Below are positions 36,204 to 63,068 of a DNA stretch of 64,000 bases, one piece after another (position 1 is the first letter of the stretch; every line of letters begins with the position of its first letter). The notes under the pieces are model-generated. The model did not search any database. It saw nothing but the letters and a program-made list of their open reading frames with translations, and had not been told where the DNA came from. Made by a program: the position numbers and the translations under genes. Source of the stretch: a virus (Duplodnaviria > Heunggongvirae > Uroviricota > Caudoviricetes); the IMG/VR virus record IMGVR_UViG_3300028833_000069. The stretch is one strand, 5' to 3'.

Positions 36204-39200
36204 TTAATCTCCCCAGCTCCAATCTTTTGCAGCACCTATTCTTTTATTCATCCAATCTTGTAAATCAATTTCTTTGTCATCATCAAATGCTACAAATAAA
36301 TCATTTTGTAGATTAACAAGAGTTGTATAGAATCCAGGTTCCCAGCTCAATCCTGTCAAACCATGAGGACCAACATCATCAAGTGCTCTAACAAGAGTTC
36401 TTTCAAATGGGTTCATGTCTGACATTTTGTTAGTTCCTCCAGAGAAGATAAGTCTAAGAATATAATACAATAGCAAACCAATAAGAATATCATGTAAACC
36501 TAATTTAAGGTTAGCAAGTCTTTGTTTGTTATTCATTATCTCGGAAAAGTTTAAGTGATAAAGGTCTCTTATAGTTGACATGATAGAAGCAAAAATACCT
36601 TCTATATAGTCTCCTTGCCATACATATTGTGGCTCAAGAGTACCACCTTCATTATCTTCTACTAAAGTAACTTGCAGTTCACCATTAGCAAGTTCTGTAA
36701 TTTTTCTGTATTGAGTCTTTCCATCAATTACTAATGGAACAAACTGACCTTGTGAGGTTGATTGACCAGCTACTCTTGGTTTACCTTTAAACCACAAACT
36801 AAATTTTGCAGTCCAGAAGGCCATGAACTGTTTCCAGATAAGACCAATAGCCATGTGGTCAATCAGAGATTTTGTTTCATGGTCATAATAACCATAAACA
36901 GAATCAGAGAATTCCTTGAGAGATGCTGCTTGTCTATTAGTATAAGCTCTTGGCAGAGGTAATAGTTTACCATCAGAAGAAGTCATTTGATAACCATTCT
37001 GGGTAAACTCATCAGCCATTGCTCTATAAAGAGCTTTCTCTTCAAGATATTTAGCATCGGTACTTGTAGAATTAAGACCAATTCTATTTAGTGTAGCAAA
37101 TCTTTTATCTTTTGTAAAATCATACTTGAGAACTCCATTTTCATCAAATGAATGAGCATCAAGTACTCCATCATGTATCATCTTTGCTATAAACAAAATC
37201 ATTCTATTATAGTAATCAGGAGCAATAGAGTTAATAAACATATAGTTACTAAATTGGTTAGTAAGTCCTGTTTTATTAAGAGTTTGTTTTTGTACTATAG
37301 AAGAAATATCTTGGTTAGCAATACCATACATAATGTTGATTTGCTCACAAAGAGAAAAGTCTGCAATATCACCATTTCCTCCAGCAGCATTTAAGTACTT
37401 CTTACCAGATTGGCCATATACAAATCCAGCAGCTTTTGCTAAATCAGCAGCATCAAATTCTTGAGAAGTACCTTTCATTGCCCAAAGTCTAGCACAGTTA
37501 CTAAATGTACCAAATGTGATTTCCTTTAAGAATGAAAGTGGTCTAAGTGACAATACTAAGTAACTGTTAAGTTTCTTAGCAACACTCATTACCTTTGCTG
37601 CGCCTTGAACTTCTTTTGGTAAGATAGTCTGGTCTTTAATTGAGATGTTTATCTGCTTATCAATAGCATCAAGTTCTTCAGAAAATGTTGCACCACCAGA
37701 AGCTCTGTAATAATGCATTACTGTTGCTACTGCTTCTACATGTAACAAGACTTCATCAAAGTATCTTTTTCTAATTGTTTGATATGCCATATCAGCAGCA
37801 AGGAAATTAAGATTGATTTCAAAGTCATGTTTACCTTCCTTCTCAATCCAACTTTGTCTTGCTCTACCTGTAATGTCATAAGCATTATACATTTGAATAG
37901 AGTCTTCTCCAAGTTGTCTATCTATTTCAGCAGATACATCTGCATGTACACCTCTTAAATCAAAATCATCCCTAAGGTTCTACCAAGCTTTATTAAAGAA
38001 ATTCATCCAGCCAATATGACCAATGTTTCTCATTCTGTTGAAATCAGAGCCTCTTCTTAAAGGTAATTCAAAGTAAGTATCCTTTGATTGGGCATCTCTA
38101 ACTTGTTCAAGATTATCAATCTCAGTTTCATTACCTTTGTAAGCCATTGTTTGATATTTGAGGTCAAGACCTTTAATTCTCCACTTGTTAATTTCCCAAA
38201 GAATCTCTTTAAGGAACTACTTATCTCTTGGGTCCATATTGGTTTCAGAGTAAGGATTTTTTAGAAGCAAGCTATCTGCTAAATCTCCTTCCCCATCTTT
38301 TACCATTAAAGATTGCCAAATTGGATATGTATCATTCCAAGCAAGTCTATCCATTTGAGATTTATTCCATCTATCTTTCAGATAATCAAGACAAATTCTG
38401 TTAACATTATTTGCTTGTTTAAAGAATTCTTCTCTTAACTTATCATAAGCAGCTCTATAGAAAAGAGCAATGTTCTCCATGTTTTGTGATGGAGAAGCAG
38501 AAGGAGTAGTTGAAATAAGTCCTTGTAATGGACCAGCAAATGAATTTTGATTAGCAACTACTGCACCACCAATCAATCTAAATATATCAGTTACATTGAT
38601 TCCCCAAGTACTCACTTTACCATTAAATTGTACATCAGCATTTCTGTAATGTAACAATGCATTAGCAAGTAAGAAATAAACTTGAGATACAGGTGTGGTA
38701 AATGTTCTAGCAGTTGTTATATTCTCATGTTTTAACTCTTGAGGATAAGCCCTTCTGAGTTTCTTCATGAGGTCTTCAATCTTTGCTATCTTTTGATTCT
38801 TCTCTAAGTTAGAAGTTGGTATAGAAGTCATAATCTTATGAACTTCTTCATCTTCTTTTACATTAGCAAGAATAGTATCAAGTTCAGATAACAATAACTG
38901 CCAATCATCAGCTACAACAATATCTTGTGCAAAGTGATTCGTAATGTTCTCACCTTTATTGTTAGCAGCTTTAATCAAGTAATCAAAGTTACTCTTTAGT
39001 TGTGCTAATACAGGAACATCAGATTGTCCTTCATAGTTGTTGATTACTTTAATAAGACCAATCTTCTTATTTCTAAAGATATTAGGATTCTTATCAGTAA
39101 TAACATTTAATGTAACTAACAATTTGATATATTCCATGTTCTCAGTTGTAGAAGGCATTGCTTCAACGCCAACTAATCTTCTTACTTGGTCATTACTATA

Positions 39201-40910
39201 AAATTTTCCAAGTATTGTTTGAGAACCATTGTTATCTTGTTCTACACCAAGCTTCTGGTCAGTAAGACAAATAAAATCAATTACACCACTTCTTGTATCT
39301 TCATAAGCAATAATGCCTAAATCAAGAAGAGTTGGAATATCAAGTAATTTGTACTTCTTATTTACATATTTTCCAAAAGTTTGCTGTAATACATTGTATG
39401 TATTGGTATTAGGATTACTCTTTGTTCCTAAGAAGTCAAATGTAGATGGGTGAGCAGAAGTACTCTGATAATCAGTAATCTGTCTTACAATATCATGAAC
39501 TTGTTTATTGAAGTGAGTTCTAGTATTGTTGATGATTTGTTCAATAATACCGTTATGTTTTGTAAAATCTTCTCTATTAGTTCTCTTTTCAACTTTACCT
39601 GTTAAAGGATTTACAAGAACATATTGTGTTCTACCATTCCACACTTGTACAGTAATTCTTCTATCAAGTTCTTCAAAAGTGTAATTTCTTTCCTTTCTTT
39701 CAAAAGGAATGATTAACTTTCTAAGAGCTTCATCAACTTCATTATTTAACTCTGATGTATTTATAGTTTGTACTGCTACAGGAGAATATATAAGTTGTCT
39801 AATGTTTTGAGAGTAGTCACCATAAGAGTAATCAAGCTTTGATGGAGTAGAACCACTGGAAATACCTAAGTTTCTTCTATTTTCTACTCTCATACTTCTA
39901 ATAGCTCCCATAGGCATACTAATTGGTAAAGTATATAAACCAATTCTGTATCCATCAAAACCACAAGCAGCAAGTATTTCTCTATACATACCTAACTGAT
40001 ATTGAGTATGTATTTTCTTTGCAGAATACCAGTCATCATAACTTCTAGTAGATACTTTGAAGTCAATAATGTCAATATCACCATTAGGTTTAACAATAAT
40101 TAAGTCACAAATACCTTTAATACCAGAGAAATCTTCATTAACTTTTACATTGTTAGTAGAAATATGATGTTCACTCAAGATAGTTGCTCCAGAGTAATCA
40201 GGATTGTTAAGAATGGAATCAACAACTGCTGTTACATTCTTTTTGATAATTCTAATTATCTCTTCAATGTTTGGTTTAGAACCTCTTTCTCTTGAAGTAA
40301 GTATAGTATCTAAACTTGCTACTGTCTGGCCATCAACTTCATGTTCTGTACTAGTTTCAATAGTTCTTTTAGCTTCAGCAAGAGCTGTTGCAAATGCTAA
40401 TGAATCATAGCCTTTCTGATTAGCAGTTGTATTCTTAAATGCAATACTTACAAGATTATGAAATAAACTACCAAATTCACTAACAGCAGACTCTTCTTCA
40501 ATTTGTAAAAGAAGGTTATCTAAAGCTGCTTGCATGTCTCCATTAGCTTTCTGAGTATCTTCAGGTTGTAACAAGTTTTTAAGAGTATTCTCTATTCTGT
40601 TCTCTTTATTGTAAATAGGAACAAGAGGCTTCATAATTACTCTGCCTGCTGCATCAACCTGTCCAAGGTCATGTTCTTGTTCAAGGTATTCAGATACACC
40701 AATAAACCTGTCTTTCTTTACAACAGTCTATGAGTTCTTTCTTTCTGACAAAGAATCTAATCTTCTAAGTCTTGTAGTAAGGTCTGATTGTACACTCAAG
40801 ATTGTAGACTTGATGTCTTCCATTCCTTCCTGTTCTAACTTATTAAGTATGTTTTGTACAAGTTCCTCTTGAGTAAGAGTTACTTTATTAAATGTATAGC
40901 ATTTACTCAT
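36204..40910 (-). CDS. 1568-aa virion cargo-like protein with a PD-(D/E)XK nuclease domain and C-terminal TM helix (TAG read-through)
   Basis: ORFs 40728, 38217 and 36204 are one frame joined by TAG at 40728, 38217 and 37980; ends TAA; GICDL...IIDFK...YQLGMY; ILIGLLLYYILRLIF. Confidence 0.85.
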
Positions 40911-41773
40911 AGACATTCTCCTTCTGTAATTATACCTTCTTTAATTAAAGATTCAATATAGTTCATAACTTTTGCAGATTGAACTACTTTATATTGATAA
41001 TCAGAATAACCTGTTTTTGCAATCTTTTTAGGTTTCAAAAGACTACTATCATTACCAATCTGAGATAAAGGACCTTGCAAGTATGAAATAAAATCAATTA
41101 CTCCTTCAAGTCCAAATGTTTTCTCAAGATGCTTTACCATGATAGCATTCAATTCATCATATTCTGGAATTACTTCATAACTAACCTTATTGTCAATAAT
41201 TGCTTCAATAAGTCTAGTAAAAGCTTCTTCTTTCCTATCTAAATCCATAAAGTGTAAATATTCAGTAGGAAGACTTCTTAGCATTTCTTGGAACTGTGGA
41301 ACTTTAGAAACAATTTCCATAGCCCTCATAAAGTCAGAATAACTGTCAGCTTTCATTACACCAAATACAAGATGTGTAAATTCATGTAATGGAGCTGTTG
41401 TTGTAGCAGCATTTGTGTTAATATAGATTTTACCTTCTGCTACACCAGCTTCTGTGCTTTCTGGAAATCCTAAAGATTTCATCTGATAGTCTTCTACTAA
41501 CTGCACATCTACTCCTAGAGTTCTCATGTTATCTGCAATGATATTAAGTGCAGAATATAAATCAACCTCTTTTAAGGGTGTTTTTCTTTGATTTAAGACA
41601 CTTTCATCTATCAACTGGACAAGTTTATTAGCTTTAGCTGGATATGCTCTCAGAGCCTCTAAAAATTGCCCTGCTGCTTCTCTAGGATTTTCAGATATAG
41701 CAGTTGGGGAGGGAAGAGTAATCTCCTCCACTCCCTTTCCTGTATTTAATATTACTTTAAATTCACATGCCAT
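40907..41773 (-). CDS. 288-aa zincin-like metalloprotease
   Basis: IYIN...APLHEFTHL (HExxH) and distal EEAF; start MACEF lies 1 nt after the upstream TAA. Confidence 0.78.
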   Translation of the reverse strand: MACEFKVILNTGKGVEEITLPSPTAISENPREAAGQFLEALRAYPAKANKLVQLIDESVLNQRKTPLKEVDLYSALNIIADNMRTLGVDVQLVEDYQMKSLGFPESTEAGVAEGKIYINTNAATTTAPLHEFTHLVFGVMKADSYSDFMRAMEIVSKVPQFQEMLRSLPTEYLHFMDLDRKEEAFTRLIEAIIDNKVSYEVIPEYDELNAIMVKHLEKTFGLEGVIDFISYLQGPLSQIGNDSSLLKPKKIAKTGYSDYQYKVVQSAKVMNYIESLIKEGIITEGECL

Positions 41774-41774
41774 A

Positions 41775-44700
41775 TTAACACTCATAATTAACTGACAAAC
41801 TTCCATTCTCTAAAGCACTAGTTACTTTAGCAGCATTTTGTAGAGCTTTGTTATCTACTTCAGCTTCTTCAAAAGTTCTAAGTCCAAGTAACCCTTTAAA
41901 ACCATCCATAATTGAATGACCAGATTCAAATCTAATTAAGGATTTTGGTCTTATTCTTCCTCTAAGTAAGAAATAAATGAACTTCTCTTTATTTTCAAGA
42001 GTAGGCTCTATTGTTCTTTCTCCTCTATCATACAAGAGATAATGATTGATTAACCTCTATGATAAGGATTCAGGAGTTGCATCAGTAATGTACTTATCAA
42101 ATATCTTTGTAAGAGACCTTTGCCCTATAGAATCTTGATTAAGAATTTGATTGTAAATAAACATTAAGTCTCCAAAAGTCATATTCAAACCTTTGTTCAT
42201 TACAGTAGATGTTCTTTGGAGAATTGTTCCTAACTTAATATCCATCAATCTATTGAATCCACCAACAAAGTTCTGATACTTCAAAGTATCATAATCTGAG
42301 TTGATTTGGTCTATATTGAAGTTAGCTACATATTTAGTTACACCAGTATTAGCATCTTCAAAGAGTCTTATTCCATCTAAAAATTCATTGTTTGTAACAG
42401 CTTGAATAGCATAGTTCAAATCAATTTCATCTTGTGTAGTAGGATTCTCTTTAATTGCTTTTCTACTAAGTTGTTTAAGAGCTGGAACTACAATATAGTT
42501 CATCAATTCAATAAAGTCTTCTATAGAAGCGTTGCTCTTGAAGTCTATCTTGTATAATTTCTTTAAAGTTTTATTTCTAAATGGTAAAGTAATCTGTAAG
42601 TTTTGGTCTTTAAGAAAATCAGCAACAACATAGTCATCAAAGAATTTAATTGCTCTTTGTGCAGTTCTACTGTTGTATGTAATCCTCTTAACTCCATTAC
42701 TCTTAAAGTTAATTAAACTACCATCAAAGAAACCATTGATACCAGAATCTAAAATAAATCTAGCTTTTGCAGAAAGAGCTTTCATTTCTTCCATAGATTG
42801 AGAATATGCTTCAAGCATGGCATAGAAGTTACTAGACTCATTGATAATGTCATATACATTGTAAGTAGATTTAACCGCATCATAAATGTCAGTTACTGCT
42901 TTTCTGTATTCAGGGTCAGCAAAATATCTTGTCATACTGATAGGTTTAGTAATATCAATCTGATACTTTTTAATAATATCATTTGCCTTACTAATCTTAT
43001 CTGAGTAATATTCTACTACTTTACCTCTTCTGTTATCATGTATCAATGTAAGAGCTTGTACTGCTGTATTAACATTTAACAATGGTAATTCATCATCTGT
43101 TACAACCTACAAGTTCTTTTTCAAATTGAACCATCCACTCTTGGATAGTCCTGGCATTTGACTTGCTCTAATTGCCAAGAGAGTTTCATGTAAATCTTTT
43201 ATTCTGTTAGATAATACACTTTGGAAACCTGTTAAAAGACCATTAGCTTTAAATAAATCAACTTTAACACCCTAGTTAACTCCAAGTATTCTTGCTAATT
43301 CAGTAATTTCATCAGCAAACTTATAAAGTCTCATTATTTGTACACAATCATCATAGTATCCATTGTTGTTACCCCAGGATAAGAATTCTTCAAATAATTG
43401 TTCATCAATTCTTTTTTCTTCACCATCAACAAATCTATTAGATTGAATCATCTCATTAAATTTGTTAAATGGTTTAGAAGTTGTAAATTGAACAATTGTC
43501 TCTGGGTCAACTCCAAGTAAAGTCAAGTATACATGTATTGAAGCAAGCTTAATACCTGCATTCATTTTTGCAAGTGCTAATTCTTTAGCATTATCCGTTG
43601 CAAGTGAAATTAAGGAACTTTGCTGTAAGGAAGCAGTGTTATTATTATAATATAACTGTCTTTCAGGATTACCTAATAAGTCTGCCCATGCTTTGGAAAG
43701 TTCTTTAATTCTTTCTTCGATAATTCTAACATCTGCTACAAAACTTGTTGGAAAAGTAATTCTTTTTTCTTTACCTTCCTCATCACTTACAAGTAATGTA
43801 AGTTTATTGTTAAACCACTTATAGCTATCAAGAATATCTTGTGCACTTGGATTATTTCTATAGAATTGGTTATAGTATTGTGTTAAAGCAAAGAATACTT
43901 TAATACCATTTGCCATTACACCTACTGTTTGTTTACCAACTGAGTTAATCTCTTGTAAAGCATGAATAGAAATTCCATCAAACAAATTCATTTGTTGTTG
44001 TTCTATAAATACCTTGTCAAGAGCATCTTTAAACAATTTCATTGCTCCATCAATAGAGGAGTAAGAAAGAGAGAAGTTTTTAGCATTAGTAGAAACAGAG
44101 TTAATGTTTCTTGCTACTAAGTTCTTAGATTCTTCAGCTGTGATGATATGTCTGTTATGCTTGTTAAGTTTAATTATCAAGTTTCTAACAAGTCTATTAT
44201 CAAGTAAGTCTTTTGTAATGTTAAAGGATTTGTTAGTATTTACATAGTTTAGTATGTCTAACAGTAACTGTAAACCAATTACATTATCATCTGTTGATAT
44301 GTATTGTTGAATTAGTTGTACAAGTTGTGCATCAGGATTGTCAGTAGTTACTTGTACTTTATTAGTACCTTCATCACTGTCATCTCCCCAAACCAATTCA
44401 ATGTTAGTTGGTAATGGTAATCTATCAGAAATCTCCATAGCTGCTTGACTAGTGTAATCTGCTAATGGAGACCAATGCTGATAAATACCTTGCTTGTTAA
44501 GTGAAACACCTAACATGTAACTTTTATCCATTTTGTTAACTTTACTTTTCAGTAAAGATTAGACTATCTCTTCACTCATATTTTGAGTGGTGTGCGCTTC
44601 CATTATCCTTTTATCTTCAGGTAATGTACTTAATGCTATAATTTCATCTAGCACCTGTGTACCATAATAAATCTTTAAATCAGACATTTCTGGAAGTACT

Positions 44701-47700
44701 TTATACATCATACTTGGACAAACATAAGGTGATATTATTTTGAATAATTTTTTTCCTTCTGTTGCACCAAAATTGATTGTACATCCTGCTTTTTCATGAA
44801 TAATTGTTGGAAATAAATTCCACTTTTCATTAAAGTATTGTATCCAAATGTTTGCTTGTTCTTCTGAACAATATGTACTAATTCTAAAATAGAATCCACA
44901 GTATTTTCCGTTGCGTTTTCTTCTAAGTATAGACCCATCATCCATACAAATTATTGCAAGACCTAATGCATCTACTCTATTTAATAGTTTTAAAGAAAGA
45001 GTTTTTTTATTATCTTTATACATAACTCTTCTTAAAACTCTATTAAAATTGTAAACAGCAACATTGAAACTATATTGAATAGTATGTTTGCAATAACCAT
45101 TTTGGCCTTCAAATCTAATAATTTGGCCAACTTTTATACCATGCTTTTTTAGTACATTCCTTTTGTACTTTACATAGTCATATTGTTTCCAACTATGATT
45201 TACTCTAATTTGTCCATTTTTTTGAACACATCCGTCTCCAATACTTAATGCTATTAGGAGATTTCTATTTTCTTTATTAACTCTATCTGTTAAAGATTTC
45301 ATAATTACATTACTATTAAAGAATGTTTATAATATAATACACAATTAGTCGTTGAACCTTCCTCTATTTGAGGCTTGGCTGCTGATTACCATATCATTTA
45401 GACTTAGGCTTCCCAGCAATTCACACACTTTAAGGACACCAATAAAAGTTTAATGTCCATATCTGACCCTTGCAACCATAATTGCCACCTAGTAACAAAC
45501 ACATCATTTACTTCACTCTCAGTAAATCCAGCAACTTTCATTGCCATAAATGATTGTAAGTCCTGAGTAGGTATTCTGGTTGAGATGATATTTAAGGATT
45601 TTAAGAAAGAATTGTATAACACTTGAGACAAGTCTCTAGAGTATTGTTGCTCACTATCATTATAGATATTAGCAAGTGCTTTCTTAACATCACCAATCAT
45701 TTGCTGTGAACTTGCATAGGTAACATCAATTGCCTCAGTATCATATGTCTTTATTTGATTATGATAAACACTATTCTTTACAAGAGTTCTTAATTCTTTT
45801 AAAGAATGGAAGTGTGTACCTAAAGGTTGTACTGAAACTATGTTATCTAAACTTGATAAAATCTAGTTGATTTCCTTTACAGCAATTGTATCTGAATGTG
45901 TGTTAAGAACTATACATTCTTCACCATAATTGTCACCAATGTAAAGAGTGGCATCCTCAGGCCACTTATACATTCTATTACCTTGTTTGTCTATCCTGTA
46001 TCCTTCTCTTACAAGAACATTAACGGGAGTAGCATTTTGAGGTTTAATTTTTGATATGCTAAACTTACCACTATCTGTTCTAACTATTACTTCTACATCA
46101 TTAAACTCACTTCTATAATAGTTGTTAACTCTTTCAAAGTAAGCTGGTGTAATATCTGCTAAAGATGTATTTCCTAATTTCAGTTGAGTTCTGTAAATTT
46201 TAGGAATTACTGCTTCAGCAGCATGTTTCTGATAGTTAGAGATAATAGTAAAGTCACTAGCTACAGGTTCAAAAGAATGTCTAATATCTAAGTTGTGGAA
46301 GAACTGTCTAAAGTTATAATGACCTTTAGCTTTACCTTCAGTAATAAGAGGAACTTCACCTAAAGTATATCCAAGTTCAAGAAGTTCTGCTTCTCTTGCT
46401 TGCCATGCCTTCATCCATTCTTTTACTTCTCTGAAAGCTTTTTCTCTATCTTGTTTAGTATTATTTCTATTCATTAACCTGTTAAACAAATCCATATTAC
46501 CTGTTACATAAAGTAAGAAGTCTTTTAACTTCTATTCTTTAGAATCAGTTAATACTTGCCAAGCAGTAAATCCTGGAGAAATTACTGCTTCATGTATTTC
46601 AGTTTCTTGAGTAGTTGCATTTTGTTGATGCTCTAAAATCAGTTTCTGTAAGATATGAGCATGATTTGGAGCCTCATTGTAATCATAAGTACTTCTACCA
46701 TAACTGTTATCAGGAATCTTATCAGTATAGTAAACTAAAGGTTTACCATCTAATTCTCCAGAGTTAATCTTATCTAATATCCACTGTCTTCTCTCTGGTT
46801 CAATATCCTCCCAAGCAGTACCTCTAAGCCACATCTCAAAGTATTGTACAGCTTCTCTTACTGTAGGTACTTTAACCTGTGCTGTAGTAGTACCTGTTGC
46901 TAAATGAGAGAATGGATTACCAAAGTGCATTCCTTGAGCATCAGGATGTCTTAATGTATCAATACCATCAATTTCCTTAGCTCTTGCCTCTGTGGTTTTA
47001 GCACTACCAGTAATTACTAAAGGTGGTACTTCAGTTTGTGAAGCAGATGTTTGTAAATGTTGTAATGTTTTAGCATATACATCTTCAATGGCTTTCTTTC
47101 CTTGTTCATTAAGCTCTCTAGTACCTATACCAGCAAAGTTTGGTGTAAGTGTTGGAACTTCTGTAACTGCCCAAGTACCACTAGTATTTCTAAACCACTG
47201 ATTTCTAACTTGGTCAAACAAGTATACTGGTTTGCCAGCATCAATAGCCATTTGAACAGCCCATCCTGTACCACCATCAACAATTCCTTTACTAATATGT
47301 CCAATAGCAAACACAGCATCAGCATTCTTTACTTGCATCCAGTTTCTAGCAAGTAAATCCATATATTTTTCTGGTTTTCTATTTAAAGTTTCATTAGCTT
47401 GTAAAACATGAGCTTTACCTTCTTGGAATTGTTCTTCTGTAATAGCTACATTACCATTAGGTGTTTTGTTTCCATGATAATAATGATTGGAAGTAACACC
47501 AAATCTAGCACCAACTTCTCCCCAATAAGTATCACTACCAACAGCTCCACCTGAGTGATTTACATATCCTTGTAAAGGTTTTTGACCATTGTCAAGAATA
47601 CCGTTATCATACCAAACCTTACTAAAGATTACATTAGAAGGGATTGATCCAGCAGCTATAAACATATCCATCATTTCTCTACCTGTATAACCATTAAGAG

Positions 47701-49939: not shown

Positions 49940-49940
49940 A

Positions 49941-52900
49941 TTAACACTCTTTTCTTGTTATTTCATTTCCTAAATCACTTAGGTCACTAAGTACAGATGA
50001 AGGATGTGAACTATCACTGTTCATAATATCTTCTAACAGGAATTGAAGTTCTACACTTTCAGATTCCCAAATAGAATGATGTACTCCATCTACTTCCCAA
50101 GTAATGTCTTGTGGTTTTAAATCTGAAGGAGTACCAAGTGATTGATATACTTCTGCAACATCTGTTCTTTTCTTGAAGTCTCTTAATGTTAAAGGACTAT
50201 CAATATATATTCTGTGATAAGCTGGATCTCCAACAACTCTATATTCATAAAGTTCTAGAGGTTGTACTCTATCTAGACTAATTTTAGGACCTTTTAACAG
50301 ATTACCATCATCAAGACTTCTTAAAGCTCTTTGCAAACCGAATGGGTTTATCTTCATAGAACCTTCATCTTCTGCATTCCAATCATACATATCTTCAGCA
50401 AGTCCTTCTAATGAATAATTGACAATTAAGTATGCTTGTACAAGTCTTTCTGTTAAATCTACATTAGGAGTTTCTCTATTGTTCCAGTCTTCTAACCAAT
50501 CTAATTCATATCCTAGATTTTCTACCCACTGAGTTGCTCTATTGATTAAATCAGTGTATAAATAAGATTCATCACCTAATCTATAAAGTTGCATTACATT
50601 AGAAGAAGGATTAACAATACCTCCAACACCAGAATATTTTCTCTTTAATGCTAATCTATTCAAATCAGAAAGAATGTTAGCTGCTAAAAGTTTAAAGAAG
50701 TTGTTATTAGAGAATGGTAAAATAATATCAGTTCCTTGTGCAACTTCTTTCATCTTATTGATAATACTTTCAGCAATACTAATACTCTTTGAAGTTCTCA
50801 AGTCTTTCTCAATTTGTCTAGAAATTTGTTCTGCAAACTTTGTATTCTTTAACTCTTTAAAGTCTTCAAAAACATCAGTTATTCTTTCAAGATTACTTCT
50901 AATAATAGCAGCAATCTGATCATATGTAATCTGAGCTTGTGAAATTGCATTACCATTAGATGCAAGTGCTGACATTGTTTGTGTTGTCTCAGACATTTCA
51001 GACATATCAGATTCATGATTAGCATCTAATTGAATACCAAAGTTTGAAGTATCAACTTCAGACCAATCAAGGTCTACATCATTTGTAAACCACTTATCAG
51101 TATTGTTTACATTTGTAGCACCTCTCTTTACACCAGACTTGTTTGCAAGTATAGCAATAAAGTAATTTCTTAAAGGTTGATGAACATTATCTTGAGTAAT
51201 AAGAGTATCATCTTCACTGAGGTCATTAGAACCTGTGTTGATTACATATTCTGTTAAAATATCAAGACTTTGTTCAGAGTTCTGTAAAATACCGTTAACA
51301 AGTTCTTTAGAGTTATAACCTCCAAGCACTTTCCACAGTCTATACAGATTATCTATTCTAACTTCTTTAGTTCTTACATCAGGAGTACCATTTTCATCTA
51401 CAAGTCTGTTACCATTTCTATCAACTCTACTAGTTGTTACTTCATAGAGGAATTCTCCTACTTTCTTAATATCAAGTAATCTATAGAAATGTGGGCCTTC
51501 TTGATAAAAGACTGCTTTACCTTTTGACATTGCTTCAACAGTATTAACAATTCTTTTACTTTCAGTACTAAAGATGTTTCTGGTAATATCAATATCATCT
51601 CCCCAAGTTAAACCTAAGAATTTCTTCATTAGTAAATCAAAGGAAATTTTTGTTGGGCTACCTGATGTAACTGCTACTGCATTTCTAATTTTTTCATTAG
51701 TAAGTGGAAACTCAGCCCACTTGTAAAGAGTAGCATAATTATCTCCTGTGTGCATACCAAGTGTCTTCTTAGTACCTTGTATACCTCTACCAGGAATTGA
51801 GTTATTTTCTAATCTTGATTGAATAGGACAAATGAAGCAGCTACCATCAAATATATCTTGACCAGACATTGCTCCATTAGGATTATATACTGGTTCAGAT
51901 AAGTCATCTATTACAGCTAACTTTATTGATGGAGATACTCCGTTGATTAACTTTTGTTGGAAGTTCTCAACAGTACCAGGGAATATAACCATTCTCTTTG
52001 TAGTTGCTCTAAACTTCTCATCAGCTTCTGCTACATCATCCTTATATTTACTCTTTACAACATCTATGAAAGGTTCTTTAGAAGTTAAGTCTAAGTAAGC
52101 TTGCTGAATGATGTTAGTTATTAAAAGATATTTAGCAATAAGACTAGAATCAATACTACTTGGAAAAGTAGAGAATTTATCCTTATTGTCTTTTATATAT
52201 CTTTTAGCATCTTCTGCGAAAGCTTCAAGTTTCTTGAGTCTTTCTCCCATTTTTGCTCTGAATGTATCAAAGCTTGAGATAGAAGCTAATTCAGCAGTAA
52301 TTAACTTATTTGCTTCAACACCTCTCTTTTTAGCATAACTATAATGCAACTCTTGTGTAAGTGTTACACCATTTTTAGGCATTGCTTGTAAAGAAGTAAT
52401 AGATGGGAACTTTAATTTTAACAGTTTATCAAGAGCATTCCAAGCATGTTGTAATTCTCTTGCATGTTCTTCTGTTAAATGTTGTTCTTGTAACATCTCA
52501 ACTACATTGTCAGGGTTAAGCATTATTACTTCTCCTTGGAAATAATCATTCCAGTCTTGAAGTACATTATCTACAAGATTAACATACATGTTCTTTCTGT
52601 AGAAATATGCTAATTCGAGGAGTTGAGGTGGGGTTAAATCCTGTAAAGGAGTAAACACTTGGTTACTTGTTTGAAGTTCCCAAGGATTGACAAGTACATC
52701 AGATTGTAAGTTAATAACCTTATCAATTACTGAAGACTTATCTGAAAACTCAGTTGGCTGTATTGCCATAACTCCTGTATTAGGATTATCATTATTACCA
52801 TAGAATAAAGATAAGAAATCACCAATAAAGGAAGACATAAAGCTTTCTTGAGTTGACATATGAGAAGCTGTCTTACTATCTTCTCTTGACCCTACATCAA

Positions 52901-54935
52901 GTTTAACAGCAGTAGAGCCTCTATAATTGTAATTAACAGAGTTCTTATGCTGACTTTTTGTGTCAAATGGATTTGCTAACCTTTGTGAGAAGAGATTGGG
53001 GTTAGCAGCTAGGAAATTAGTTAATCTTGCTTTCCAAGCACTGTGTAATTTCCTATATTTTTGTAAATAGAACAAATCATTAAATGCAGCAGAACTAATT
53101 CTGAAAACAGGAATAGAAGAACCTTCATAATTGTTAAAAGTAGTATAAGGTACATTATCTTCTTGTGCAGATAAAATTGAAGCCATCTTTTGGAAAGCGT
53201 CAATCTTTGCAATACCTGTCTTTCTATCTTCAACTACATCAAAGACTGCTTTATTTATTTGTTGTATCTGGCTGACTAAACCTTCTGCTTTAACATCTAA
53301 GTTATTATATGCTTGAGAAATAGTGTTAAACAGAAAGGCCATGTCTTTTATAAATTTCTCTGGTTGACCATACAATGCCACAATAACAGGGGTTAGTTCT
53401 TGTTGGAATACAGCTCTAAACATTTCTTTAAAGTCTTCATTTTCAAGAGCTGCTAACAATAAAGTCTTAGTTGTTCCTTGTGGATAAGCTAAATCATAAT
53501 ACTTTACTTTAATAGAGCTGTTTTCTCCTGTTTTAAGGATAATTCCATCTTTACTAAAGATTGAAGTATCACCACTTTCAGGAGCTGCTATTTTAGCTTG
53601 TGACATTGCACCTGCAAGTTGCTCAGATACCTTACCAGAAGATTTAGAACTTTGAGAATAGTTAACCTATGTTGCCATTGCATTCTCATCATACTGTAAA
53701 TATGTAGGAGCAGTGGTATTCTTTAAAGCATGTGTAAGTAAAGCCTCAATATCAATAATCTGTGATTTATTAACATTTAATGGCTTTCTTAATTCTGCTA
53801 AATATAAAGAAGCAACAGGATAATTCTCTGTATCTCCTTGATATAAAAATTTAATGAGTGGCATAAAGTCTCTCATATTCTCCTTAATTATATTAGGAGT
53901 ATCTTGAGCAGTAAGCAGAGTTCTAATTGCTTTGTTAGGATTTTGGTGCATTCCTTCAAAGTCAGGATGAGTAAGTGCATACTCATACTCTGCTTGTCTA
54001 AGTAATCCTGACAATCTAAACAAATCTGCTGTACTCATAAATTTACCTGGAGTATCAGCATATTCATTAGTCCCAGTTTTGTGTACTTTAGGTATTACAC
54101 TAATTATAAACTTAGCAAGTTTAGCTAAGTAATTTTCAGCATTAGTTTCCTCTAAATCATCACCTTGCCAATACAAAGTAGATTCAGAAGCTTCTATTCT
54201 AGAATAATCAGCATTTGTTACACTACCTTCAGCAGCACTGTCTATTTCTACAATTCCTTCAAACTCTTTACCAACTAAAGCATCAAAGTTATTCAGAATA
54301 AATAAAGCAGAAAAAGTATCAAAGTCTTTAATGTTTGTCAGGATATTTGCTGATGGTTTAAATACTGATATAAAGTTTTGAACTTGAGGACTATTCATAA
54401 ACTCCTGGTAAGCTTCAAAGTTAACAGTACCAGTTGTATTGAACATATTAGTTGTTGGCAGTCCTAAGTTTTGTGCAATGGTATTCATCAAGAAGTTCTT
54501 CAAGTTAGCTATACCATTGTTAAATTGAATACCATTTTTGATATAAACAGCCTTGGCACCTTTACTTCTATCCAGCAATGTATATTTAAACATCAGCTGT
54601 TGTAGTTTTTTCAGAGTATAGTTATAAGCATCAGAAGCATTTTGGAATAATTCCAGCATATTTCTAATATCATACTGCTGAATAACCAATTGAGGAGTGA
54701 GGTTTGGATTGATATTCCTATAATTAAAATTATAAGTTTCTAATCCCAACTCAGCAATCACTTCTCTAAAAACTTTGTCTCTATTTCTATCTGCAATAGA
54801 ATTATAAAGATTTTGTAATTCTTTTTCTACCTATTGAAAGGATTTTGTGTGTTCATTTAATCCAATAATAGTAGACCTAACCTCTTCAGTCAGGTCTACT
54901 ATTGTCGAATCAACTTTTCTACATTGATGTTTCAT
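49941..54935 (-). CDS. 1664-aa RNA polymerase beta-like subunit (TAG read-through)
   Basis: One frame from ATG 54935 through TAG at 54831 and 53667 to TAA 49941; DIFDGSCF, KKTLG, FGIQLDA, KRKYSG..V.P; adjacent to the DxDxD subunit. Confidence 0.72.
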
Positions 54936-54938
54936 ATA

Positions 54939-57900
54939 TTAACTACAATATATTTCCAAGTTATTGTCTGCATCAAAAATAGCTCTAAGATTTGGGTCTT
55001 GCTCACCTTCAAAGGTAAGAGCTAAGAAACCTTCATCTGTAATAGTAATGAATCTATTGATGTCAGTTACATCTGGAGCTATATCTTGCAAATGTTCAAC
55101 TAGTTTATCTAAGTTCTCAATCTTATTCATCAAGTAACCTTGATTAACCATATCTGTAAGACTAGTATCCAAGTTAAGTATTTCTTGAGCCATACTTTCA
55201 ATAGCTTCTCTATGACCAGATACTTCAGGTTGTTCAACAATCACTGGAGCAATTACTACTTGTTCTGTAGTACTTAAACCTTGAATTGGTTTACCAGTAG
55301 GGTCAAGTATTACAGCAGGAAGAGGATTACCTTCAGTTTCTTCCAAACCTTCTAACTTATCACCTTCTGTATCAGATACAATTACTTGTGGTTCTGGAGC
55401 AGGAGGTGTAGGTAATTCTTTAGTAGGCTCTTCAATTGTTGGTTGCTCTGAGTATTCATTTGTTACTATCTCAGATGGGAATTCCATTACTTGCTATCTT
55501 GCTTCAAGTGCAGAAAGGTTTAAACTAAAGTTAGGTGTTTCTACATAATAACCTCTTAATCCAAGATAGTTAAAGAACTCTGGATTAGATAAGTTAATAG
55601 GATAAGTACCTTTAACTTCATCTAGAGCTGCACCTTCAGGATAAATGTTAACTCTTACAGTATCATTGTCTAAATCAATTGGAGCAGGGAATACAGCAGA
55701 AGTGTTTTTAAATTCTCTAATATCAACATATTTAGTATTTGCAGAATCATAGAAAGTAAGTGTATCACCTTGTGTCTTAACAAAACTTCTTATGAACCAC
55801 AAACCAATGTTAGATGTTCCTTTTAAGAATTGCTCAACTGTATCTCTATTCATGTTAGCTCCCTTAGAAGCAACAAAACCTTCAAGTCTAGCAAGAGTAG
55901 TAGCAACTTTATCTGGATTACTTTGAGCATAATTTCTTATATGTGCAAGCAGCTAATCAAAATAGTTGTAAGCTTCATTATTGTCAAAAGCATTGACAGC
56001 ATCTAACAGTCTTAAAACTGTTTGTGTTTGGTCATATTCTGACATGAAGACACCTTTTCTCATCTTAATACTCTTATCAAGTATTCTTCTGATAGCATCT
56101 TCTAATCTAAACTTACCTCTATCTAAGATAATACAAGTTTGGTTAGCTGGATTATTATCATTGGTAAAACCAATAACTGCATAATAGTAACCTTTTACAA
56201 TAAGATTACCCTCATCATCAAGAAGATTACTATTTTCTCCAGCATGATACTGTTTGTAAAATTCTGCAAACTTGTACTTGTTATCTGCATTTTTTGCATC
56301 TGTTATAAGACCAATCTCTTTAATTACTATACCAGAATCAATCATTCTTTGTAAAGAAGAGAACTCTTGAGCATCAGAAGCTTTCACTACTCTAAGAGGA
56401 GTACCTTGTTCAAATTGTTCAGTTGTCCAGATTATAGGTGTATCACTATCATTAACAGCTGCTTCCATTTCTTCAAGGACTGATGTGTCAATAGCATTTT
56501 CAGGATTTCTCTCATTGAAAGCTTCAATTGTAGAAATCTTTGGATAAGTACCAATAGTAATAAATCTGTTCAATTTACCATCTACTGAATATACTCTTCT
56601 ACCAAAGCTAAGCAATGGGTCTCCATCTGCTACCATTTTACTTTCATCAAACCCAAACTTGTATGCTGGAGCATCAATTTGAATGTTACTCTTATAACCC
56701 CAAGAATATTGTTGGTCTTCAACCTTAATGTTCTCCAGTATCCAGTTAACTGGGTCTGCAACAGTATTCAATTGTGGGAACACTGCTCTGAAGAAATCAA
56801 GGATTTTACCACTATCTAATCTGATGGCATTTTTATAGTCTTCAGAGTTAGAATTTGGGTACAAAGTTAATACTCTTTTGAAGGCAATAAAACCCTGAAC
56901 TATATTTTCTGGAATAACAGCTTCATTGTTAAATAGGCCATCTAAATCAACAGGGAAATACTGTCTTTCAGCTTGCTCTGACTCAGTAGCAGGAGTAAAC
57001 TCTCTACTTACTGGATTATAGTTTAAACCTAAATGATTATAGAAACTGTATCCATAATAGAATTGGTTTCCTTCAGCAGGATAAGAAGTTTCTTCTGCAA
57101 TGTTAGTTACAGAACTTCTATCCTCACCTTTATCTTCTGTAAATACTTCATCAATCTCTTCTTCTGATGTATTAGAAGTAGTTGTAGAAGTACTTGGAGA
57201 AGCAATAGAAGGCACATAATCACCAAGCAACTCATTGAGTTCATTCATTTTATCTTCTTTCAAAGTAGTAACACTAGAAGCAGCAGGGTCTCTATAATAG
57301 CTTGTATTAGCAGTTCTGTTAGGAACAATATGTAAGCTATCTCTAGTATCCTTACTCATTTTAATAATACCACCTGTCAAAGATCTAGTAATAAAAGTAT
57401 AGAACTTAACAAGATTATCTCCAGTAGAAGATGAGAGATTCAAATCATCAATAATGAAGTATTCTTCCTCAGCTCCTTGTACTGCATTTATTCCTAATTT
57501 CTCAGGACTATAAAGTACATAATCATCTGGAGATATACCAGCTTGATTAACAAGTGCTTGAAGTTCTGCTGGCATGTTACCAGAAGAATCAAGTGTTGTT
57601 AATATACCTAATTTCTTATCTCTATTTCTTGCTGCTTGAGCAAGTTTTCTAATATCAGCAGGAGTAATACTCTCAACAATCTTATCTCCATGTAAGTCTG
57701 TCTCATCTTCCCAATACTTAACAGTAAGAGGATTATTAGCAAGAGCTTTTTCAAGAGCAGCTGTAGCAGCATTTATACCTACAAGATTACCAGTAGTTTC
57801 ATAAATATCAGCAAGGATACTTCTTAAAGTATCAATGTTATCCTTCTTATTTATGTTAGTTGGTCTAATTGACTGAAGAAGTCTTGGACTAGACCATCTA

Positions 57901-60900
57901 AATACTTGATCAATATTATGAGGTGCAATACCAATATGAGCACCATCTTGTAAAGTATCACCAAAAGTGAAAATCTTTAGACCATACTTTTCAGCAATAT
58001 AACTCAGTACTTGTAATTCAGCAGAAGTAAAGTGAGTTACCTCATCAATAAGAATTGTCTTAGGAACACTTAATATCTCATTTGTACTTCTATAGAACTC
58101 ATCATTATTTGCATCAAAGTTCCAAATATGAGAACCATCTCTAGTTTCAATTTGAGTAAGTAAAGAATCTGCACTTGTTGGGTCTTGCAAAGATTGCATT
58201 AACTTACTGTATGCTTCATCAGTTAAGAACTTTCTTAACAATTCTTCTTTATTAGCAACATTAAGCAGTCTTACTTTGTGCTCACTAATGTTAGTTGTAA
58301 CACTAGAGTGAAGTCTTTGTGCTTGATTAGTGTTAGGAGCTACAATAGAAGTTCTTTCTGTGTTAATCATTGCTAAAATGTTTCTAGCTACAACAGAAGT
58401 CTTTCCTGCACCACTAACACCATTTAAGAAGAATATGTTCTTAGTCTTTAAGATAGAATAGTCACTATCATACAGCCAATCAATAACTGCATTGTGTAAT
58501 CCTATCTTATCTGCATACATGGAATAAGCAACTTTAGTAGCATGTTCTTGAGAGAAGTAAGGAACTTTATCAAAATCACTACCAATGATTTCTCTATATT
58601 TAAATAAGAAATCTCTTGGATCAATTGCAAGGATAGTAGTCAAGTATACAAGATAGTCATACTCTGAAAGAGCTTGCATATCTTTATGTAATCCTGCACT
58701 AAATAATCCTTTTTCAAGAATCTCTTCTCTACTAATTTCTAAGTTATCAAATAACTTTGCAATGTTACTTGCTACAAAGTCAGGTGTGAGAGATATTTCT
58801 CTAAACTTGTTAGACATATACTGCTCAATGAAAGCAAGTTGTCTATCAGGAGTTGTATATTGGTCTATTTGGTCCTGTGGAGGATAAATAGAAATATCAC
58901 CAATTTTTAACTTACTTGCATCAGCTTGCAGTTTAGCTAACACAATTTTAGTATATTGTTTCTTGATATTCTTGTCTTCCTCTAACTTATTAACCGTATT
59001 AGTCTCATTAAGTGTTCTAAGGAATTCAAGTTTATCTACAATAGCATCAATATCTTGCATAAGTATAGCAGCATTTTCAGAAGAAATAGTTTCATACTTT
59101 TCTGCATTTGGTTTACCATACTTTTCAAGATATGCCCTAATTTGAGCATTGTAACCAAACAAATGACCTGTATAAGAGATTGGTGTACCATCCATACCTG
59201 CTACAAGAGCTTTCATAGTATTCAGAACTCTTTGAGCATTGTCAAGTTGTTCTGCAATATCAGGAGCTCTAAGATAGTCTTCAATAGAAGAAATACCAGA
59301 TAAGTATGTAGACTCATTCTCTAACAGATTAAAGATACTTACAGCATTTCCATCATTAAGTTGAAAATCTAAGTCTCTTAATCTATCATATAAAGGATTT
59401 GTCTTAATCTCTTTAGTAATTGTAAGGTTATATTTTTCTGTCAAGGGAGAAGTAATGATAGCACTAACTTTGTTTACAAAATCTTCTTTAAAATTAGGAA
59501 TATTATGTATTACAGCTTTTGCTTGTTCATCTTCACCATTTTCTATATCAGAAATTACTTTATCAGCAAATTCTTGAATGATTGTAGCAAGAGGTTGTTT
59601 ACTATCAAGACCTCTTACTAAGATACTATCAAAGTTATCTAAGTCTTGACTAGTTAAAGACCAATATACCATTTCTCCATCAGGAGTAGGAGCATAATAG
59701 CTTAATCTACTTTGAAGAATAGGATATTTATTCTTTATACTATTATAAACAAGTGTTTTAAGAATCTTGAAAAGTTCATTATCAATTATTTGATTTGTTT
59801 CAAAGTACTGATTAAATACAGTGTCTTCAAGATTATAATCTCTTGCTTTTATAGAATTTAAGATGTTACCAAATAAAGTTTCTTTTGCAGTATCAACACT
59901 TGTCTCATCTACAGTCATTTCTGTACCTATTACTTGTGATAGGTATTTGGAGAGGCCTTCGGTGAGAGTGGGGTTATTAACTGTATACTGGTCAACTAAA
60001 GCATCTGTATAAGGTTTAAGAGAATTAGCAATGAAAGCTGCTACCACATCTCCTGTTACATTGTTAGCAGGCACAGATGATAGCCATTCAGCAACTCTCT
60101 GATTTAAATTTTGTCTTAATACAGATTCCTCTACACCAGACACTCTTGATACTTCAGCAATTAGTGAGTTATCTCCTAAAGCAGTATTTACAAATTCTTC
60201 ACTTACTTTTACAGGGTCTGCTCTAAAGATGTCACCAAGAGTAACTCCAGGTAAACCACTTTGTGAAAGCACACTGGAAAGTTTAGTTAGGATTGTCCTA
60301 TATGCTCCATCTCTTAATAGATTTGCATAATTACCTCTACTTCCAGAAAGGATTGTAGTTAATACAGACTTTCTTAAATCAGCATAATTCTCAACATAAT
60401 CTTTAATTGCAGTTGAGAATGTTTGCTCAAGATTGTCATAAGCATTCTGTAAAATCCACATAAACTTAGTATCTACATTTTCATTGTCTCTCCATTGCTC
60501 ATATTCTGTCTTAACAGTATTTTGAGTAACAGTAGCACCTTCAGTAGGAAGACTCTTATAGTCTACACCATATTTAGCTTTAGTGTAACTATATAAGTCC
60601 ATAGTTACTAAGTTGTTTCTAATTTCTGGAATAAGATAGCCAAGTGTGTACTTTAAGTATTTCTCATAGTTCTCACCATTAAGAAACTCTTTGATAGCCT
60701 TTAATTCTTCATTGTACTTTTGTTGTACATTATTTGCCTCACCTTCAGGTGCACTATTTAATTGACTTCTTAAATCTACAAGATTTGCAACATGCTTGTT
60801 GTAATCAGAGATAACTAACTTGTGTATGTTACTATTTTCAATAAGAGGAATAATCTGAGCATCCCTAACCACTTTCTTGAGAAGCTCTTGGTCATTGTTC

Positions 60901-63068
60901 TTAATATCCTCTGTATTGATAACAGAATCAATGTATCTAAGATATTCTATCAAACCTTGTACTACATAGTCACCTCTTGTTTTAGAACCATTCTCAGCAA
61001 CAGGAGTAGCCTGTCCATCTACAACAGTAGGTAATGATACAATATCACTATCATACTTAGCCATGCTCTTTGCTACTTCAATCAACTCATTAAGTCTACC
61101 ATTAGCAATTTCATGGATAAGTGAATATTGAGTAGGAGGAGTTACTTGTTTGTTTGTTAACCAAGGCTCCACCCTAGTATTTTGAAACTCAAAGAGAGCA
61201 CCACCTAAGAAGCCACCAAGAGCTGACATTAAATATCTTTGTGCTCCTTGCTCAGAGAAGACATTAGACCAACCACCAAAGGAACCTTTGTTGTCACCTA
61301 ATCCCATCCAACTCAAGAAGTCAAACATACCTTTAGTAACATCCATTGTAGCTTCTTCAGTTACTTCTTCAATGGATTCTGCAACAGCATTTCTCCAGAA
61401 AGGTTCTGTACCATCAAATGTTCTTTCAAAAGTCTTATGAATACTATTTCTAGTCTTCTTAGCAAGTTCTGCAAACTTGCTTAACTTTCCAGTAGCATCT
61501 GGTTTAGTAGCCATTTGATCAATACTTGCTGCAATTTCATTGTAGTAAGGTCCGAGTGCTTTCTTTAAAGAGGCTTTGTTAATACTTCTCCAGTAGCCTT
61601 CATCCTGACCTAAGAACCAAGAAGACACTCTATCATCAATAGCAGTCATGGCTAAATACTGTCCAAGTGTTGCTAACAATGCAGCAGCACCAGCAGTTCT
61701 TCTATCATAACCACCTTGTAAAGCATCTTGGTAAACATCATTAGAAGAGATGAGAGCCATATAACCAAGAGATAAACCTCTAGCTAACTTACTTTGACTT
61801 TCCATCAAAGCTCTGATTTCAGGAGAAGCATTAACCATTCCTTGCCATACTTTAGCAGGTTCAATAGCAATACCTTGAGCCTCCATACCTCTAAGAGTAT
61901 TCATATACTGATTAGAGAATTTCTGAAGTGCTTGTTTTTCTGCTTTAGTATAAGACATGCTTGAGAGTTTGCTTAAAGAAGCAGCAGCTTTCATTTGGTA
62001 TAACTGACCAAATACATCAGATACCATATCTGCTACTTTCTCATAAGATAAGAAAGACTCATTAGCAGCCTCAGAATAAGAAGGATTAAACTTTGCAGCA
62101 TAGCCTTCCCATTTTGTCATTGTCTTACCAAAAGCAGAATCATTACTATTGGTTAACAAGCCATCTAACATTTTACCAAAAGTAGGTAATACTTGTGCTA
62201 AAGATAAGGCAGCTGTAACACCACCATAGTAAATGTTAAAGTACGGGATCATGTAAGGAGCTATCTCAAAGATAGCCTTCATTGTTGTTCCTGCAACACT
62301 CTTATCAAGACCATCAGAATCAAAGAAGTCAACTTTGTTCAACCAAGAATCTTCCTTAGTCAGAATATCAGAATAAGCTACTGGTTGTTTGCCATAGATT
62401 TCTCTATTACCAATAGTCTCACAATAATACTGACCTTTATCATTCAGTTTTGGTTGTCCTTTCTTATGTTGAACTTCTCTACCAATCTTATCATCAAAAT
62501 GAGTGCCATCTTCATCCCAAGTAGCATACACAAGAGTAGGTCTACCTAAGTATTTCAAACCTAAGAAACCTTGTTCTTCTGCTGTGTAGTCTAACTCTTC
62601 TCCTGTCTCATAATCAACTACTTTTGATTGTTGAGCAAGTTCTCTCCAGCTCTTAGTTTGGTCTCCCTCACCAAAGAGATGTTTAACACCTCTACTAGTT
62701 CTGAGAGGATTTTCTATCTGCTGAATAGAATAGGTAGGTTTAACTTTTTGAGCATCTATTGGAGCATAAATATCTCTAGGATTGTACTTAGCATATTTAC
62801 CAAGTTCCTTTGCAGACTTTACTGCTGCCATTTGGTCATACATTTCAGATGCATACCTATAAGTATCCTCAAAAAGTTTTTCATTAAACCCACCATCTCC
62901 CATCTTAAAGGCTTCCTGAACAAATTGTGAGTTCTTATATACATCTGGTGCTAAGAGCCCTGTATTCTCAGTATTCAAGCCATTAAATATCAGAGTGCTG
63001 ACATTTGCAGTAGGATTGATTATTGCAGATACAAATATGTCATTAGGTTTTCTAATATCCTGTGTCAT
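54939..63068 (-). CDS. 2709-aa virion cargo-like protein with hydrophobic helices and an SF1 helicase-like domain (TAG read-through)
   Basis: In-frame TAG at 55953 and 55494; ends TAA; NGVSGAGKT, ILIDE, FGDTLQ, VQGAE, YTFITRS. Confidence 0.85.

Follow-up and report, generated by a model that had tools for sequence, protein, structure and literature searches.

No viruses of the human gut are more abundant than the crass-like phages, and it is unexplained how megadalton amounts of cargo protein are delivered through their tail, which is too narrow for the proteins in folded form. For crAss001, gp47, gp49 and gp50 were described as cargo, which has to unfold partially in order to exit past constrictions of <50 Å (PMC10172136). 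The order of cargo exit was left unexplained and is probably set by protein packing and mutual interactions, and structural disulfides were found in the same virion (PMC10172136). The homologs in phi14:2 and crAss001 are virion proteins and the polymerase among them, crystallised for phi14:2 (g066), enters the host. Where the cargo block of Crassvirales is fused into one protein, Drobysheva et al. termed it a polyprotein. Ejected proteins of N4-like phages are purged of cysteine (Cys) (PMC11445570). Here, we analyzed the IMG/VR record IMGVR_UViG_3300028833_000069, a stretch of 64,000 nucleotides from a virus of the Caudoviricetes, termed “the window” throughout the paper. Its minus strand carries a single tight block of giant open reading frames (ORFs) from position 63068 to 36204, encoding five proteins named A to E. 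The best explanation for A, B plus C (RNA polymerase), D (zincin-like) and E, judged by features of their sequences, is a virion-packaged and host-injected RNA polymerase module of a crAss-like phage. At every junction between neighbouring proteins of this block a C-terminal Cys faces an N-terminal Cys. We propose, with a probability of roughly 0.6, that head-to-tail interchain disulfides join the cargo proteins into a pseudo-polyprotein for ordered ejection. A full-text literature search, which included the papers on the crAss001 structure, the phi14:2 polymerase and phage DEV, yielded no description of terminal Cys in these proteins.

Terminal cysteines in the five giant proteins of the window

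Gene models were built on the minus strand using translation table 15 (TAG read as Gln) with one group I intron spliced out, resulting in chain proteins of 2709, 1664, 2413, 288 and 1568 amino acids (aa). All coordinates given in this section without further mention of a strand are minus-strand positions of the window. Protein A (54939-63068), the first member of the chain, starts with MTQDIR and ends with EIYCS, with C2708 as penultimate residue and no Cys at the N-terminus. Protein B (49941-54935) starts with MKHQC and ends with RKEC, thus carrying Cys5 and the C-terminal Cys1664. Protein C is encoded by exon 1 (45452-49939, 1496 codons), running from MNIC with Cys4 to GSDMDI, and exon 2 (41775-44528, 917 codons plus stop), ending with NYEC and Cys2413 as final residue. 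Protein D (40907-41773) starts with MAC, ends with GECL and has C3 and C287 as its sole Cys. Protein E (36204-40910), the last member, starts with MSKC (Cys4) and ends with WSWGD, a C-terminus without Cys. The Cys codons opposing each other at the four junctions are 54945-54947 (A C2708) and 54921-54923 (B C5) at A/B (54921-54947), 49944-49946 (B C1664) and 49928-49930 (C C4) at B/C (49928-49946), 41778-41780 (C C2413) and 41765-41767 (D C3) at C/D (41765-41780), and 40913-40915 (D C287) and 40899-40901 (E C4) at D/E (40899-40915). Consequently, paired facing Cys were found at 4/4 junctions, one on each side of every chain break.

The five proteins contain 21 Cys in 8642 residues (0.243%), split 3+4+5+2+7. 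A total of 8 Cys were found within 6 residues of the 8 junction-facing termini, where 0.11 were expected over 44 positions (hypergeometric P = 4.5e-14). The initial annotation had counted 21 Cys in 8642 residues, eight of them terminal, and our recount agreed exactly; the termini it had given for the five proteins, including a protein D with exactly two Cys, were reproduced by TAG = Gln translation and splicing. It had also described both free ends of the chain, the A N-terminus and the E C-terminus, and the C-terminus of the upstream gene as devoid of Cys. This proved correct, and for the upstream protein it holds for the entire sequence. The C-terminal part of this protein is encoded at 63065-64000, lies outside of the chain and is Cys-free. 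For genes beyond the window border an IMG/VR contig 99% identical to the window (G002, in the following the near-identical contig) was employed, in which the upstream protein comprises 622 aa. There, the three consecutive proteins directly upstream of A (1006, 500 and 622 aa) are devoid of Cys over a total of 2128 aa (L214, G002 139000-158999, reverse strand), in the manner of the Cys-free ejection proteins of Schitoviridae. They are likely channel-forming ejection proteins of the gp45/gp46 type, placed outside of the Cys chain. Other tail proteins of the near-identical contig do contain Cys. As a control, the 43 plus-strand genes of the window were inspected. Their Cys content is 1.80%; Cys was found at residues 2-8 in 0/43 and in the last 8 residues in 3/43 of them, and none of the 42 junctions is paired (0/42). 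Among 19 other late genes of the near-identical contig an N-terminal Cys was found in 0 and a C-terminal Cys in 1.

The start codons of B and C are bounded by upstream stops: the ATG of B lies 1 codon and that of C 6 codons past the upstream in-frame stop, leaving no earlier alternative start. The next in-frame ATG follows at codon 93 in B and at codon 40 in C, and starts further downstream are unlikely because large gaps would result. The concern that true start sites might lie downstream of the N-terminal Cys was thereby removed. Reading through TAG affects the C-terminus of A, the N-terminus of B and the C-terminus of C. It is supported by the open frames and by an 88-nucleotide tRNA with anticodon CUA (amber suppressor) in the near-identical contig (G002 30637-30723, L210). 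This tRNA is accompanied by an array of ~20 other tRNAs, tRNA-Cys among them. The residues found opposite the TAG codons in a standard-code homolog gave no information on the recoding. The suggestion that standard gene calling hides the pattern stood for recoded genomes like that of the window and fell for standard-code phages such as phi14:2, where the pattern is plain.

The group I intron of protein C comprises 923 nucleotides (44529-45451) and lies within the catalytic DxDxD motif. It was matched by Rfam RF00028 at 45287-45462 and encodes a LAGLIDADG homing endonuclease ORF (44559-45302, PHROG 11023). Splicing joins GSDMDI and DKSYML and yields the RNA polymerase motif DMDID, which aligns with DYDID of the intron-less relative L006. 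Relatives have an intron at the identical site or none, with additional introns further downstream in L168 and L173. A second group I intron was found on the plus strand at 24202-24449 in the early/middle region of the window (Rfam RF00028, 61 bits). At the nucleotide level, the B/C and C/D junctions have 13 nucleotides in common, GAGTGTTAATATG (49928-49950 and 41765-41787).

Conservation of the pairs and their behaviour in gene fission and fusion

Relatives of the clade comprised two GenBank phage records (22-32% identity; one using the standard code, one TAG = Q) and 96 loci from two IMG/VR scans. The IMG/VR loci were read under three codes (standard, TAG = Q, TGA = W) and duplicates were removed before counting. 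A junction was scored as paired when Cys was present both in the last 8 residues of the upstream protein and in residues 2-9 of the downstream protein, and the junction types A/A, A/R, R/R, R/D, R/E and D/E (R, polymerase) were counted. Paired Cys were found at 55/55 distinct junction contexts in relatives with 20-30% identity, and both GenBank relatives obey the terminal-Cys rule. The assumption of the initial annotation that terminal Cys are conserved and paired in related phages was hence borne out. The free ends behaved likewise: a Cys was found in 0/20 distinct E C-termini and in 0 of the complete A N-termini. The overall Cys content of the chain proteins in the clade is 0.20%.

Alignment of 16 D-family proteins of ~20% identity revealed nine invariant columns only, C3, N119, H130, E131, H134, E182, E183, E284 and C287; by this measure the terminal Cys of D are as constrained as the putative catalytic residues. 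The surroundings of the terminal Cys have a recognizable shape in the clade, with alternating hydrophobic residues ahead of the Cys in the polymerase tail, M-x-C followed by a hairpin at the D head, [IL]-x-E-x-C at the D tail and M-x-C-x-Y at the E head. The offsets vary, the C-terminal Cys lying 0-9 residues from the end and the N-terminal Cys at residue 3-8. Judged by these comparisons, the terminal-Cys pattern is under selection.

The number of genes in the block differs between phages, and the pairs follow the gene breaks. In the L006 clade protein A is split in two, and a new facing pair (FEACKVIA / MQSNC) is found at the split. Unsplit A orthologs have no Cys within 45 aligned residues of this site. 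The single A of L005 has one Cys in 2967 aa, and the first piece of L006 (A1) has one Cys, the C-terminal one, in 1540 aa. The split of the polymerase was found in the window lineage only, again with a pair (RKEC / MNIC) at the break. In fused forms the pairs are absent accordingly. In L041 the polymerase and the zincin-like D are fused, the stretch from residue 2716 to residue 3068 is free of Cys in between, and Cys 3068 in the tail stands opposite Cys8 of E. In p-crAssphage, crAss002 and cr3_1 the polymerase is fused to the gp49-like part and the single remaining junction carries a single pair. In cr118_1 the gp47-like first protein is fused to the polymerase, and a pair is found at the remaining junction only. 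Since fission and fusion events track the pairs, neighbours seem to pair with each other rather than each Cys serving some other use, which we regard as our strongest argument and which supports the pairing between adjacent chain members claimed in the initial annotation.

The terminal-Cys rule was also found in cultured phages. In phi14:2, g067 (1797 aa) has one Cys as last residue, followed by g066 with two Cys (C3 and C2179) and g065 with one (C3); this cargo contains 4 Cys in 5398 aa, all of them terminal. In crAss001, gp47 has one Cys at position -3, gp50 has C5, C2404 and one internal Cys, and gp49 has C5 only. The gp47 gene is not adjacent to gp50 and is found on the strand opposite to gp50 and gp49. 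A nucleotide signal at gene junctions is ruled out by this strand change together with the varying Cys offsets. The same arrangement contradicts “gene order” as a rule for the chain, as it had been worded before, as the gene of its first member is read from the other strand. Among 80 crAss001-like IMG/VR loci with 47 distinct terminus patterns, the terminal Cys was kept in every complete gp50 and gp49 ORF, and DAC15 and IAS obey the rule as well. It extends to two phages that are not assigned to Crassvirales in their records: Leptolyngbya phage Lbo-JY46, with a protein of 1552 aa (one Cys, last residue) followed by one of 2748 aa (one Cys, residue 4), and Cellulophaga phage phi17:2, where the rule holds along gp039, gp038 and gp036 with a small gene interposed.

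The head motif is of use for annotation, as an M-x-C start and a C-terminal Cys mark true gene ends. For crAss002 gp33 (L146 9270-9368) the annotation probably sets the start 32 codons too early; translation from the second ATG begins with MSC, in line with the conserved head motif, and this is probably the true start. Near the cargo block of p-crAssphage, gp39 and gp37 (L189 28706-29973) encode a putative thioredoxin and a truncated thioredoxin, which may be relevant to thiol redox handling.

Identity of the chain proteins

Proteins B and C together match one protein of 3250-3400 aa in relatives, which bears the DxDxD motif, and B aligns with residues 794-1912 of this single-chain polymerase. 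The motif reads DFD[IV]D in the polymerases of crAss001, IAS, DAC15 and phi14:2 versus DMDID in spliced C. With this motif, B plus C represents the virion RNA polymerase, divided in two in the window lineage, B being its N-terminal half. The polymerase assignment rests on motif and context because a profile comparison with the gp50 family gave no support. A similarity to the zincin region of D-like proteins was noted in residues 303-368 of C. Possibly, the additional split of the polymerase goes back to a copy of a D-like gene which was inserted into the polymerase gene together with its junction.

In protein D an HExxH motif with EE further downstream was recognized, a signature of the zincin-like type. 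Among relatives, the corresponding sequence forms the C-terminal end of a larger protein (~800 aa), stands alone as a protein of ~350 aa or is joined to the polymerase as a domain. The AlphaFold (AF2) model of D has a mean predicted local distance difference test value (pLDDT) of 67.8 with a confident core. In this model an N-terminal beta-hairpin begins directly after Cys3, and Cys287 is found in a low-confidence, disordered C-terminal tail past the last helix. Searching the PDB with the model by Foldseek gave the metalloprotease MATCAP in the best rows (E 0.068) and anthrax lethal factor lower down, none at E <= 0.001. No match to D was obtained in Pfam or PHROGs or by tblastn against phage records, and the PHROGs search gave no match for A, B or E either. 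A complex prediction was made with window pieces readable under code 11, namely D, 93 aa of the C tail and 60 aa of the E head; its score of 0.21 and mark of 0.34 speak neither for nor against an association.

Comparing the E family with the gp49 family by hhalign, a probability of 84.5% (E 6.9e-6) over ~214 columns in the C-terminal region was obtained, which is moderate support. Residues 141-320 of E (39951-40488, minus strand) form a PD-(D/E)XK nuclease domain (Pfam PF12705, E 1.7e-6), in which G266, D269 and K298 are almost invariant among relatives. This domain composition suggests an injected nuclease. Protein A holds the position of gp47/gp67; its homologs are the single protein of 2967 aa in L005 and the two proteins of 1540 and 1555 aa in L006. 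A P-loop stretch of the helicase-like AAA_19/AAA_30 type was detected in residues 1543-1707 of A (57948-58442, minus strand), right at the Pfam cut-off. Particular to the window are the five-member chain, the lineage-specific split within the polymerase, the stand-alone zincin-like protein with exactly two Cys and the recoded genome.

A proposed reducible cargo chain, its rivals and known systems

In the mechanism which we consider most probable, the C-terminal Cys of each protein would form a bond, most likely an interchain disulfide, with the Cys at the N-terminus of its successor, and the separately encoded proteins would act as one chain of ~8600 residues with the interchain links standing in for the missing peptide bond. 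With the Cys located within ~10 residues of the ends each joint would be almost linear, as threading through a channel requires. Threaded through the narrow channel of the tail in a largely unfolded state, the chain could exit in fixed order and at a fixed 1:1 ratio, and the reducing cytoplasm of the host would separate its members after entry. The bonds would probably form after assembly, because the cytoplasm is reducing. The bonding of the Cys pairs, its disulfide nature, its timing and its role in ejection are all what we infer from the pattern. If true, the terminal Cys chain would give a physical answer to the question of delivery: one thread, one order, one stoichiometry. It would further explain why the module is found as two, three, four or five genes among the genomes examined and why Cys are purged everywhere but at the ends, and gene fission and fusion would be neutral for the module. 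In its general form, separate giant proteins joined by reducible terminal Cys-Cys links would constitute a “protein train”, injected in fixed order and uncoupled in the host cytoplasm, which reaches beyond Crassvirales to a Cellulophaga Lightbulbvirus and a cyanobacterial phage. For this wider claim we see the chances as evenly balanced.

Several points weigh against the disulfide-linked chain. Virions are assembled in a reducing cytoplasm and the gut is anoxic, which would restrict disulfide formation to the capsid interior or to the time after release. A simple pattern screen of the window plus-strand ORFs, made without a Pfam scan, revealed no thioredoxin-like CxxC. No non-reducing gel, mass spectrometry or structure of these termini was found in the literature. 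In p-crAssphage the sole Cys of gp47 (L189 3316-5889) is penultimate and the next protein has no N-terminal Cys, at a site outside of the polymerase module; the IAS gp055/gp056 boundary has a Cys on one side only, with ambiguous bases in the record at this place. Searching the crAss001, IAS, DAC15 and phi14:2 proteins with the clade proteins by phmmer gave no match, and hhalign of A versus the gp47 family and of B plus C versus the gp50 family gave no support. The equivalence of A with gp47 and of B plus C with gp50 rests on position, the DxDxD motif and the match of E to gp49; homology was not detectable by phmmer or hhalign.

The facing Cys could also be bridged by a metal ion such as Zn or Cu, and the same end-to-end chain would then be held by coordination. 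Such a bridge needs no oxidant in an anoxic habitat, and the invariant Glu 2 or 3 residues ahead of the D tail Cys (E284) might serve as second ligand. However, each terminus provides a single Cys, two thiolates alone make a poor Zn site, and no conserved His, Asp or Glu was found at the other junction types (R tail, A tail and all N-termini), which leaves metal coordination an unlikely alternative, if the best placed one. Only a little less probable is that the terminal Cys bind another virion or host component, or that the middle proteins close on themselves by their own N- and C-terminal Cys while the first and the last protein pair. Middle members do always carry both Cys, which is compatible with an intramolecular bond, and Cys occur in other tail proteins of the near-identical contig. 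Fission nevertheless adds exactly one local pair, leaving the new first piece with a lone C-terminal Cys (L006 A1), and with self-closure the older bonds would need rewiring after each such event. The free chain ends never carry Cys, and the hairpin at the N-terminus of D is an element distinct from the C-terminal tail in the predicted model.

A role of the terminal Cys which involves no link at all, such as acylation, redox sensing or recognition by the zincin-like protease, we judge more doubtful still. A putative protease module (D) lies within the block and nothing else speaks specifically for such a role, which would leave unexplained both the strict asymmetry (C-terminal Cys only in the first protein, N-terminal Cys only in the last) and the gain and loss of Cys with fission and fusion. 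The Cys always occupies residue 3-8 and in no case follows a signal peptide as position 1, and is thus not part of a lipobox. That the pattern is an artefact of chance, shared ancestry alone, a DNA or RNA signal at the junctions or wrong starts is scarcely credible. The 13 nucleotides shared by the B/C and C/D junctions would fit a nucleotide signal, but the variable Cys offsets are incompatible with a fixed nucleotide motif and crAss001 gp47 is non-adjacent on the other strand. Chance is opposed by P of about 4e-14 in the window, shared ancestry by the persistence of the pattern at ~20% identity, where almost nothing else is invariant, and wrong starts by the upstream stops. Further candidates were rejected. 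Split inteins or trans-splicing were dismissed, as no intein or Hint match was found in the chain proteins by Pfam, the Cys lies at residue 3-8 and no conserved Asn is present near the C-terminal Cys. A bacterial lipobox was excluded because a Cys at residue 3-8 of the primary product leaves no space for a signal peptide of ~20 residues, and chemistry of the native-chemical-ligation type because the Cys is never residue 1. A complete absence of Cys of the Schitoviridae type does not apply, with A-E holding 0.243% Cys and obligatory terminal Cys.

Comparing the proposed disulfide-linked chain with known systems, the closest are the phi14:2 block gp67-gp66-gp65 and the crAss001 block gp47-gp50-gp49. 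Like the window block, they consist of giant late-operon proteins downstream of tail and muzzle genes and combine a DxDxD two-barrel polymerase, a putative zincin-like HExxH module, a gp49-like last member and the terminal-Cys rule. The window differs by having five proteins instead of three, a split polymerase, a separate zincin-like protein of 288 aa, TAG recoding and an intron in the catalytic motif, and by sequence similarity that is nearly undetectable. The fused blocks (p-crAssphage gp44, crAss002 gp33, cr3_1 gp24 and the 4946-aa protein of cr118_1) contain the same modules in the same order in one polypeptide. There, continuity is provided by peptide bonds, with no Cys pair at the estimated fusion points, whereas in the window it would be provided by Cys-Cys links between gene products.

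Outside of the phages, di-chain AB toxins such as diphtheria toxin and the clostridial neurotoxins have a disulfide which spans a chain break and is reduced after translocation. As in the proposed chain, one Cys pair bridges the break, passage through a narrow channel occurs unfolded and reduction takes place in the cytosol. The toxins, however, are made as one chain which is then nicked, in contrast to the separate genes of the window, with up to five members in series and a phage tail as conduit. The giant virion RNA polymerases and ejection proteins of Schitoviridae (N4 gp50, DEV gp71-gp73) share with the crass-like block a near-zero Cys content (PMC11445570). The Schitoviridae ejection proteins contain no Cys whatsoever and no terminal pairs were reported for them, whereas the depletion in the crass-like block spares exactly the junction-facing ends. 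Finally, the disulfides of the crAss001 virion (gp57 dimer, tail hub and ring proteins) demonstrate that disulfides occur in a crassvirus particle; they staple folded capsid-vertex and tail proteins and not the cargo termini, which were unresolved in that structure (PMC10172136).

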